Assembly (NCBI GenBank): GCA_963807605.1
Contig: CAWECG010000003.1
Location: 128,001 to 192,000, forward strand
Length of the DNA: 64,000 nucleotides
From: Candidatus Bathyarchaeota archaeon
GTDB lineage: Archaea; Thermoproteota; Bathyarchaeia; 40CM-2-53-6; RBG-13-38-9
Direction of reading: 5' to 3'
In this document: positions 34,342-37,635 of the stretch, one piece after another
How the letters are laid out: each line of letters opens with the position of its first letter
Position numbering within the stretch: the stretch's first letter is position 1
The notes under the pieces: generated by a model
Told to the model about the DNA's origin: nothing
Database searches by the model: none
The model's input: only the letters and a program-made list of their open reading frames with translations
Made by a program: the position numbers and the translations under genes

Positions 34342-34565
34342 AGAGTCCGACGGGATTCGATGCGTTATTGTTACCGGATTTAGACTCAATTCAATTAAGT
34401 TTTGTACCTGTTTTCAGGAACGTTAATGTGGTGGACCGGGCGGGATTCACACCGTTTTCGGTGCTAGAATCGGGTACAAAAATCACGCAGGTTCAAATCC
34501 CAACGGATTCAAACTTGTTATAAGACCTGAACCTTATTGATGGCGGGCCCGCAGGTATTTCACCA
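34342..34565 (-). repeat. Cluster of tRNA-3'-end-tagged repeat B copies and fragments
   Basis: Minus strand GAATCCCGCCCGGTCCACCA (34429-34448) and CCTGCGGGCCCGCCA (34541-34555); body matches 39356-39440 and 55083-55150. Confidence 0.75.
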
Positions 34566-34632
34566 TATAAATGGTCAGATACGTGCTGAATTTGCATCCA
34601 GACGTGTACAAATCAGTACAATACTAGCGCGC

Positions 34633-35737
34633 GGGGTTGTCCCGTTATTAGCGTTTTCATGTTAGGTTTGTCCAGTAGGTTATGCTTCTGGTTTTGGTGG
34701 GTTGTTTGGTGTTGTGTGAGGCTTCTATGGTGTAGAGGAGGCATAGTATGCAGTAGCTGATGTGGATGGTGATGTTTTCTAGTCCTCGTGTCTTGTGGTT
34801 GTTGAGGTTGAGGTGTTCTTTGAGTGATGCGAAGACCAACTCGATGATGGAGCGTTTATTGTAGATGTGTTTGAGGTTTTCTGGGCCGTGTGTTTTGAAG
34901 TCGCTGGTTACTCTGAGGATGTTTTGTCTTTCAGGTTTCTGGTTGGCTGGGTAGGGTATCGCGGTCTTGATTCTGTGTTTTTTAGCGGTCTCTCTGAGTC
35001 TGTTGCTGGAGTATTGACTGTCAGCGGTTAGCTGTCGGATTCTGGTTGCTGTGGTTTTAACTGTCATTTTGAGGAGTGGTATGCTCGGTTTCTTCTCGTT
35101 AGTGTTTGCTGGTGTCACTAGGAATGTTAGGGGTGTGGCTGTGTCTGTATCGACTGTTAGGTGTAGTTTGTAGCCTAACCCGTATGTGCGGTAGGCTCTT
35201 CCTACACGTGCTTGAGGGTCACTGAAGCCTGTTCTATTGTTTATGTTTCGTCTGCTGTAGGCTTTGATGAAGGTGGCGTCCATAGCAACTATTCTTGGTG
35301 TTACATAGCGCTTCTTCAGCAATTTCTTGACCTGTTTGTTTACTATGCGTCTTAGTCTTCTTGTTCCTAGTCGCTGGTTGAATCTTGAGAGTACCGTCCT
35401 ACCGTAGGCTGGCTCCTCATATCTTATGTCGCATATGTCACGTAGCCGCTCATCGATCCATAAGCGATGTTCAAGCTCACGCAGACTGTTTATTCTGAGG
35501 TAGCGTCTGGCAAGGTGTGCCTTGAAGAGTCCTAGAGGGTTACGTGGAGGTTTACCTGGACCTTCTTGATGATAGCAACTAACAACTAGACGTTCAACAA
35601 ATGATAAATCCAGATTACTCAGCAGTGACTCCAGAGTCTCGTACCCTTCTATCTGGAATCTCCTCCAAGTAGAAGGGTGCGGGGCTCAACCCTTATGGAT
35701 CTTTCCGTGTCAACTCAAAGAATATCGGGACAACCCT
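34633..35737 (-). mobile_element. IS5/IS4-superfamily insertion sequence (~1.1 kb)
   Basis: TIRs GGGTTGTCCCG(T/A)TATT at both ends; GCGCGC on both flanks. Confidence 0.9.
34657..35634 (-). CDS. DDE transposase (DUF772-like N-terminus + DDE_Tnp_1-like domain)
   Basis: DAT, GYKLH, ADSQY, YNKRSIIELVF; frame stays open upstream of 35322 (GPGKPPRNP); CTG start inferred. Confidence 0.9.
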   Translation of the reverse strand: MESLLSNLDLSFVERLVVSCYHQEGPGKPPRNPLGLFKAHLARRYLRINSLRELEHRLWIDERLRDICDIRYEEPAYGRTVLSRFNQRLGTRRLRRIVNKQVKKLLKKRYVTPRIVAMDATFIKAYSRRNINNRTGFSDPQARVGRAYRTYGLGYKLHLTVDTDTATPLTFLVTPANTNEKKPSIPLLKMTVKTTATRIRQLTADSQYSSNRLRETAKKHRIKTAIPYPANQKPERQNILRVTSDFKTHGPENLKHIYNKRSIIELVFASLKEHLNLNNHKTRGLENITIHISYCILCLLYTIEASHNTKQPTKTRSITYWTNLT

Positions 35738-35983
35738 GCGCGCTACATTATTGAAAAAAATATCGTGTATAGAAGCATGCAGATGCACCCGCAGTGGGAT
35801 ACCTTTTAGTGTTTTTACCAAAACAGTGGCTGAAATAAAAACTGGTACATGTAAATAAGCAGTTGACACAGACAACCAGTACAGGAAATAAGTATTGCAT
35901 AAACGTAAGATAAGTATGTAGCGCGCGAGAGTCAGAGGTACTTCCTCACAAGTATCTTGCTGTTTACTGTCAGTCGGCAGGTA

Positions 35984-36118
35984 TAGTCTACAAACTTCTA
36001 TTAGGTTTACTTCTTTTACGGGCGGTGTTGTTTCTTTTTTCTTCTGTTATATGGGAAACTGCTAATTTTTCTATTGGAAATTTGCACTTATACTTCTTTT
36101 ATGGTGTCTGCAGCCTAT
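35984..36118 (-). repeat. AT-rich diverged repeat, inverted copy of 62137-62276
   Basis: TACAAACTTCTATTAGGTTTACTTCTTTT is shared; the remainder is moderately diverged. Confidence 0.85.
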
Positions 36119-36163: not shown

Positions 36164-36562
36164 CAACTAGCTTGATTGTAGGAAAACACGGAATGAAACT
36201 AGAAAGAACTGCCATCTTAGATGGTTTATCGCATTTAGGGAGTTTATCCAAAGAAAATCTTTGATATTTCATATATCTCGCGGTCAACTGTCTTAAGTCT
36301 TGAAACAGCTTTTTTCAGAGGCACGGGCACAATCCTATTACCCTTTAAGCTTACCATGTAGCCGAACTTCTTCTTAGCCACAAGGTCTATCGTCGCCACC
36401 CCAAATCTTGTCCCTAGAACCCTGTCAAAGGCCGTCGGTTCACCACCCCGTTGTATGTGACCTAGAATTGTGGCTCTGGTTTCAAGCCCTGTTTTTTTCT
36501 CTATCTCTCTCGCCAAATAGCCTCCTACCCCCCCAAACCTGGCGTGGTCGAATTCGTCCATC
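36164..36562 (-). pseudogene. pfkA: Near-identical inverted duplicate of the pfkA 3' end and downstream DNA (61532-61930)
   Basis: 399 bp with 4 mismatches seen. Confidence 0.95.
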
Positions 36563-36609
36563 GTACACTGCTGGTTTCCATTTCATGTAGCTCAAACGCA
36601 TAGCGCGCG

Positions 36610-37635
36610 CTAGAGTTTCTGGAATAATTCGATGTATCTCTCAGCTATCTTCTCGGCCGTACTCTTCCTGACATACTTTTCCGCTGCTTGGATAGTTTCC
36701 GCCAACATGTCACCGCTTTCCATCACCTCAATGACGCATGCCTCGAATTCATCCGCTGTTCTGTACTTTAGGATCTCCTTATGGAAGTTCTCAAAGAATG
36801 GTGAGTCCAACGCTATGATTGGGCAGCCTGAACCAAGGCATTGATGGGCTGTGCTCGAAACGACTGCTTTCGTCTCAACCTGTCTATTGAGAATAAGAGC
36901 GTCGGAGGCGTGCAAGTAGTCGTAGAGCCTCCCTATATTCGGAGCTTCGTTCCTGATATCCACCTGAATGTTGCTGGCCACTATCCGATTTGGTGCATGG
37001 ATGCTGACTACTAGGAGTAGAATGGGGTAGCGTCTTCCCAGCGTTGAGATGCTCTGCAGCAACTCAAGGTCTTCCTTGACGTGTTGACCGAATACCAGCA
37101 GGATTTCCCTATTCAGCGGCAGACCCAGTTTCTGTCTGACCTCCATTTTATTCCCTTTTACAACAGGGTGACATGGGAAGGGTATGACATCGATTATCTC
37201 TTCCGGGAAGGCCTCCCGAAGAAACTTCCTGTATCTCTGGTCGAAGCAGACTATCGATTCCCATTGAAACTGGTAGAATGAAGGGTCGGAGGGAAGTTTA
37301 GCCTCATGTATTATGTTCACGGTTCTAGCTTTTTTTCTAATGTGGTGAAAGATCTTCTTCAACTCGTCTCTTGGAAGCATACCGAGGTTCTGAACCACGA
37401 AAATATCGTGATCAGAACTCAATATTGGTCGAGGATCAAGGTATCTACTGACTCGGAAACACCTGGTGACGTAGGTCTCATCCTCTCCCACGAATGTGGT
37501 TCCATGGAAACCTGATTGAAGATAGGAATAGAGCCGGAGATCATGCCCTTCTCTAACCCATTCTCTTCCTATCAGCTCGGCGTGAACGGAGGAACCTGCA
37601 TCAAGGTTCCAAGCGCCCATCATACCAATCTTCAA
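36610..37635 (-). CDS. GT-B fold (GT4-like) glycosyltransferase, paralog 1
   Basis: HAELIGREW, RQKLGLP, YLHASDA, LGSGCPII. Confidence 0.8.
   Translation of the reverse strand: MKIGMMGAWNLDAGSSVHAELIGREWVREGHDLRLYSYLQSGFHGTTFVGEDETYVTRCFRVSRYLDPRPILSSDHDIFVVQNLGMLPRDELKKIFHHIRKKARTVNIIHEAKLPSDPSFYQFQWESIVCFDQRYRKFLREAFPEEIIDVIPFPCHPVVKGNKMEVRQKLGLPLNREILLVFGQHVKEDLELLQSISTLGRRYPILLLVVSIHAPNRIVASNIQVDIRNEAPNIGRLYDYLHASDALILNRQVETKAVVSSTAHQCLGSGCPIIALDSPFFENFHKEILKYRTADEFEACVIEVMESGDMLAETIQAAEKYVRKSTAEKIAERYIELFQKL

Follow-up and report, generated by a model that had tools for sequence, protein, structure and literature searches.

A 64,000-nucleotide stretch of DNA from an uncultured Bathyarchaeia archaeon (hereafter the window) contains an ordinary-looking insertion sequence (IS) of 1.1 kb whose insertion site is the centre of a short GCGCGCGC palindrome; the IS appears to use the intergenic copies of this palindrome and does not appear to create them. 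The explanation that we regard as probable is that an IS of an undescribed clade captures a GC-run target, that GCGC is duplicated on insertion, and that the palindrome serves as a harmless landing site. With this result the most obvious conventional explanation of the GC palindromes falls away, since the transposon sits in them and does not account for them. It also defines a widespread clade with a simple, strict target (GCGC inside an alternating GC run) and provides a natural case of an IS5-type transposase that captures palindromic targets.

The Element, Its Transposase, and Its Copies

The IS occupies positions 34633–35737 of the window (1105 bp, minus strand, as delimited by copy comparison). 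A sequence-only reading had placed it in the centre of a dispersed CG palindrome, and both the sequence and all seven genomic copies confirm this. The order is TAGCGCGC (34625–34632), then GGGGTTGTCCCGTTATT ... AATATCGGGACAACCCT, then GCGCGCTA (35738–35745), the outer segments being, from the sequence and the flanks of the copies, the left and right halves of an interrupted target palindrome. Each flank is the reverse complement of the other, which gives an apparent inverted repeat of 25 nt (34625–34649 and 35721–35745, 92% complementary). The true ends of the element are imperfect inverted repeats of 17 nt: one downstream of the transposase gene (34633–34649, plus strand), whose first base varies among copies, and one upstream of it (35721–35737, plus strand), identified by inverted-repeat search and from the copies. 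Annotation should benefit from this distinction, part of the apparent 25-nt repeat being target DNA.

ORF and domain searches identified the open frame at 34657–35685 (minus strand; 342 codons from stop to stop) as a transposase with DUF772 (PF05598, 7.9e-8, residues 44–116) and DDE_Tnp_1 (PF01609, 1.8e-26, residues 130–317). IS5-family transposases likewise carry DDE_Tnp_1, commonly with an N-terminal DUF772, and the size and layout of that family (0.8–1.5 kb, one ORF, terminal inverted repeats) agree with the 1105 bp, the 342-codon frame, and the 17-nt repeats found here. The best NCBIfam model is that of IS1182 (NF033551), which gives 140.1 bits in three separate stretches and does not reach its cut-off of 270; for the IS5 model NF033581 the score is 81.6 (cut-off 140), and it is lower still for the other IS5 models. 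Elements of the IS1182 family measure approximately 1.3–1.95 kb, so that the window element falls outside that family in both score and size. Among annotated plasmid relatives, the nearest are transposases labelled "IS5 family", with at most 29% identity. Since the domains and size are those of the IS5 family and the curated score cut-offs are not reached, we file the element as an undescribed branch whose target specificity is new, a Bathyarchaeia clade of IS5/IS1182-type DDE insertion sequences. The clade is present in 31 of 151 sampled Bathyarchaeia genomes, and a literature search for GC-run-targeting archaeal ISs found nothing relevant.

No in-frame ATG, GTG, or TTG occurs upstream of codon 122 in the subgroup of the window copy. 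Throughout this subgroup a conserved ATA codon (35650–35652, minus strand) takes the place of the ATG start of related IS groups with which it aligns, and no canonical start lies ahead of the conserved N-terminus. We infer that translation begins at this ATA, which would give a likely product of 331 amino acids (35652–35650 to the stop at 34659–34657, minus strand), and the codon is probably a weak start that limits transposase synthesis.

The 2.65-Mb assembly contains seven copies, each of 1105 bp with an intact frame, in two subfamilies that are approximately 92% alike and internally 99.7–100% identical. The window element is thus one of seven, apparently intact and recently active. As the sequence-only reading had anticipated, collecting all copies with their flanks revealed CG flanks at every one: AGCGCGC on one side, and on the other GCGCGC and then T in six copies and G in one. 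Copies A2, A3, and A6 are 100% identical over 1105 bp and differ in their outer flanks (TA..TA, GA..TA, and TA..GA, respectively), which assigns those bases to the insertion sites, not to the mobile unit. Mismatches at three of the seven copies, including A3 and A6 of this identical trio, ruled out a duplication of 2 bp (TA) outside the runs. A long ORF is split by none of the seven, whatever duplication length is assumed.

Two shortened forms keep the same borders, AGCGCGC and GCGCGCTA. One is a 55-nt end fragment (G000:C3:384650–384706) that has lost the second inverted repeat and still abuts GCGCGCTA, as expected if the GC run is flank; the other, in the sister genome, is a non-autonomous derivative of approximately 205 bp (L029:327–546, G001:C251).

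GC Runs as Probable Target DNA

More than 60 relatives with about 40–90% protein identity and several different end sequences were examined, drawn from a second family in the same genome (seven copies), 80 metagenomic loci, and copies from other Bathyarchaeia families. Alternating GC runs lie directly outside both ends of these relatives despite several unrelated-looking inverted-repeat cores, the exception being copy e of the second family, one side of which lacks a proper GC run. Run lengths were tabulated for 46 distinct metagenomic insertions with both ends. The pair 6/6 occurs in 29 of them, and the remaining pairs (4/6, 5/5, 5/6, 6/7, 6/8, 8/4, 8/5, 8/7, 9/8, and 8/10) span 4–10 bases, with sides that are sometimes unequal. 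A run is exactly 6 bases long at 73 of 101 ends; extensions to at least 8 bases (11 ends) outnumber those to 7 (four ends), the opposite of chance continuation. Copies in genomes without motif enrichment have GC runs too, and the base outside the run is often not A/T there, so the A..T or TA..TA context belongs to the palindromes of this genome, not to the element. Copies also differ in the first base inside the GC run, which is unusual for a transposon tip.

The second family (IS-B) shares 41% protein identity with the window transposase, has a 360-codon frame with a normal ATG, and is flanked by GC runs of variable length at its seven copies (G000:C1:381535–382676 [L042:1001–2142], C1:359512, C1:343574, C3:1079162, C3:246500, C4:41595, and C5:37839). 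In copies a and e of this family one end is longer by the same two bases (AC), which looks like an outward shift of the cleavage point.

The origin of the runs is clearest at L078, a relative (47% protein identity to the window transposase) that interrupts a conserved gene. Its left flank encodes a peptide ending ..QEILNEAR and its right flank resumes with RAAKKAEQELV.., whereas uninterrupted homologues (325–333 amino acids, 94–96% identity) read NEARAAKK across the site, ..ILNEARAAKKAEQ.. with one R. In the uninterrupted DNA of L131, the left flank of L078 aligns at 821–1011 and the right flank from 1008, an overlap of 4 bases, and the frame is kept only with the 8-base run, deletion of both runs breaking it. 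The pre-insertion allele was therefore ..GAA GCG CGC GCT GCA.., which holds the 10-bp consensus in frame, and insertion duplicated GCGC. It follows that the GC runs at this site are target DNA and that the duplication is of 4 bp, as in the IS5 group.

By analogy, the unoccupied window site would likely have been TAGCGCGCGCTA, restored through a 4-bp duplication with GCGC at 34629–34632 and again at 35738–35741. A duplication of this size, as opposed to one of 6 bp, had been put forward from the sequence, and it matches the one empty site recovered, that of L078; its extension to the window copy is drawn from homology and identical flank architecture, with a relative of only 47% protein identity. 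The window flanks themselves are compatible with 4 bp, although a palindromic flank cannot separate 2, 4, or 6 bp.

We propose that a transposase multimer would bind a symmetric target, an alternating GC run and preferably the 10-bp palindrome AGCGCGCGCT, and would cut it with a 4-nt stagger around the central GCGC. Joining of the element ends and repair of the gaps would then duplicate GCGC and leave each end beside GCGCGC, which would make the inverted repeat look 25 nt long. Direct recognition of the target by the transposase is the reading that we adopt, and the strong 6/6 preference suggests that approximately 8–10 bp are recognised.

Empty sites in related genomes, which the sequence-only reading had proposed to seek, were thus forthcoming for L078 and not for the window copy or copies of its own subgroup. 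In G001, the only same-genus genome, the flanks of all seven copies were missing or split between contigs, or their homology broke off precisely at the motif. Conversely, the flanks of copies in G001, G012, and G014, compared with this genome, gave usable junctions only from L037 and L033, at sites without a GC run, and a same-genus search for the G152 copies returned no flank matches. Contigs from the source sample, found through exact-protein matches of neighbouring genes, break at the IS; other neighbouring proteins had no exact match. None of the public runs held more than 13% of words; contigs from two sediment runs carry relatives that are approximately 91% alike and end at the IS borders, none bridging the site. 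Among ORFs across the joined flanks of all copies, L078 was the sole informative case, the frames at L085 looking non-coding.

The principal alternative takes GCGCGC (or AGCGCGC) to be the tip of the inverted repeat, in which case the element would measure approximately 1117–1119 bp, would make no regular duplication, and would merely resemble the motif. The run at both ends of every member examined (copy e aside), motif-poor genomes included, is what such a tip would produce, as is its exact length of 6 bases at nearly three-quarters of the ends (73/101), and the variable base would then separate the run from the conserved core. The absence of any GC run at two orthologous sites of this genome points the same way. 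One of these sites (C3:1022400–1022960) is collinear with the locus of a related IS, L033:1440–2620 (G008:C6), where TAGACT forms a 6-bp direct repeat outside the two GC runs; this genome has neither the runs nor the repeat there. The other is the place matching the left junction of the G001:C166 copy. Both comparisons would fit GC runs that arrive together with the element. Direct repeats outside the runs are, however, no commoner than in shuffled pairs across 42 other insertions, and the G008 case is therefore an outlier. The tip interpretation also has to contend with run lengths of 4–10 that are sometimes unequal between sides, with the excess of long extensions (11 versus 4) contrary to chance, and with identical copies that differ at the outer flank bases. 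Above all, the run at L078 corresponds by homology to coding sequence within the uninterrupted gene of L131, with only 4 bases extra. We consider this alternative unlikely, and the caution that the motif might simply be part of the terminal inverted repeat went the same way, the flanks at L078 being target DNA.

The Dispersed Palindrome and DNA Joins

The window contains 16 occurrences of the half-palindrome TAGCGCGC; shuffles predict 0.98, and none of 100 shuffles reaches 16. Genome-wide (2.65 Mb), AGCGCGCGCT occurs 106 times, whereas base composition would predict approximately 1.8; its surroundings show no conservation beyond (T/A)A..T(A). Only two of the 106 lie inside ORFs of at least 150 amino acids, although such ORFs cover 73% of the genome. 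Being abundant and almost never in genes, the palindrome is a harmless landing site for the IS in this genome, and the earlier suggestion of a safe harbour accords with the 104 of 106 solo motifs outside these ORFs.

The converse suggestion, that the IS makes the dispersed palindromes, holds that excision footprints, adjacent deletions, or carried flanks seed or lengthen CG runs and so explain rearrangement junctions. We compared motif and clade in the same class-wide sample of 151 Bathyarchaeia genomes, counting a genome as motif-rich if it had at least 10 copies with a low control count. Fifteen genomes are motif-rich, and a clade match was found in only five of them; the 10 without a match include G113 (131 motifs), G107 (94), G136 (65), and G003 (63). 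Conversely, 26 genomes carry the clade and are motif-poor. G075 has five clade matches and no motif, and G152 has 14 matches with 16 motifs against 14 occurrences of the reversed control pattern. Metagenome-assembled genomes under-assemble IS copies, which makes absence weak evidence, and the pattern is still far from tracking. IS presence and motif abundance thus appear unlinked, contrary to the expectation that one would follow the other across genomes, and the idea that the IS creates the motif is not supported. We conclude that the GCGC specificity of the clade is old and independent of the motif, the palindromes merely offering many neutral targets in motif-rich genomes.

Several copies nevertheless lie exactly at breaks in synteny or paralogy, as an element that makes the motif might. 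For A3, the same gene is truncated differently in the sister genome, where the join lies at a solo AGCGCGCGCT. When L028:150–800 (G001:C67) is compared with L023:2900–4400, the sister genome is seen to carry an ACT-domain gene that a solo AGCGCGCGCT connects to the 3' portion of a second gene. This genome lacks the ACT-domain gene, its copy of the second gene is cut short approximately 140 bases further on, and the IS lies at the junction. The paralogous copy of the left flank of A2 stops at a solo TAGCGCGCTA, and at A5 and IS-B copy b homology too ends at the junction. These copies fit a palindrome that marks DNA joins, with the IS arriving later. The direct repeat at L033 could in addition mark an insertion that brought its GC flanks along. 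Set against an IS origin of the motif are the two-way mismatch between genomes just described, the 106 solo motifs against 14 IS copies, the presence of only four 12-base runs in the genome where accumulating footprints would be expected to yield more, and solo runs without flanking direct repeats, in which they do not differ from controls. We give an IS origin very little credence, and the footprints and adjacent deletions that had been suggested to create or extend CG runs are not supported by these data, both kinds of mismatch being common: motif-rich genomes that lack the IS, and IS-rich genomes that show no enrichment.

It could also be supposed that the GC runs at the IS ends are patches made by the host, written as an excised IS is end-joined into broken DNA, a view to which the copies at synteny breakpoints and the orthologous sites without a GC run would lend themselves. 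L078, however, is an exact 4-bp duplication in a pre-existing in-frame run with no other base gained or lost, and the 6/6 pattern is more regular than the length spectrum of solo runs; we accord host patching hardly any probability. A slight chance, no better than that of an IS origin of the motif, is left for a mechanistic link between the IS clade and the GC palindromes, in which elements would move with GC flanks into run-free sites and later excision would leave solo palindromes, or in which the transposase would take part in the process that writes palindromes. We retain it because the G008 copy at L033 has its 6-bp direct repeat outside the runs. The capture of pre-existing GC runs by the transposase is the reading that we prefer to all of these.

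In a separate observation, a clade transposase fragment at G012:C123:8218–8592 (residues 218–342 only) starts directly at a solo AGCGCGCGCT, so that the palindrome there marks a truncation inside an IS.

Known Systems and Adjoining Sequence

Members of the IS5 group (E. coli IS5, in the ISfinder descriptions) duplicate a palindromic 4-bp target, which is of the CTAG type in IS5. The window element resembles them in its length (approximately 1.1–1.2 kb), its single DDE_Tnp_1 transposase of approximately 330 amino acids, its short inverted repeats, and probably in a palindromic 4-bp duplication, here of GCGC. It differs in that its transposase is at most 29% identical to annotated plasmid transposases and scores below the NCBIfam cut-offs, in that it targets a GC run and prefers an extended palindrome, and in its archaeal host and likely ATA start.

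Dispersed intergenic palindromes are also the targets of the ISs that insert into REP/BIME sequences, namely IS1397 and ISKpn1 (IS3 family) and IS621 and ISPpu9/10 (IS110 family). The likeness lies in the specific use of a dispersed, intergenic palindromic repeat as neutral ground for insertion, all seven copies here interrupting the motif. The REP/BIME-targeting elements belong to other transposase families, however, and the target here is a bare 8–10-bp GC palindrome that, unlike REP/BIME-type targets, has no conserved surroundings past the (T/A)A..T(A) context and is also hit when it lies in a gene by chance, as at L078.

IS1272 of Staphylococcus (IS1182 family) replaces its target inverted repeat without making a duplication (PMC5678879). 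Palindromic DNA is targeted in both cases, and IS1182 is the best-scoring NCBIfam model for the window transposase; L078, in contrast, keeps its target and duplicates 4 bp, and the window element is shorter, so that insertion here is not of the IS1272 type.

The sequence adjoining the window IS shows further features. Approximately 130 bases from it, at 34427–34499, lies a tRNA-like 3' fragment that matches many sites in related genomes at 80–92% and for which ARAGORN made no tRNA call. At 35919–35985, at the TAGCGCGC beginning at 35919, the contig of a relative has 21 other bases, including AGCGCGCGCC, in place of 64. A full TAGCGCGCGCTA stands at 36601–36612, at the end of the gene at 36610–37635 (minus strand); in relatives' contigs from three public runs homology is lost exactly at 36612, where those contigs have no GC run. 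Finally, the motif-rich stretch next to the IS holds a 105-amino-acid ORF (36244–36561, minus strand) that presumably resembles the C-terminal piece of a phosphofructokinase-type enzyme, as judged by a GHIQRGG motif, and is probably a gene fragment.
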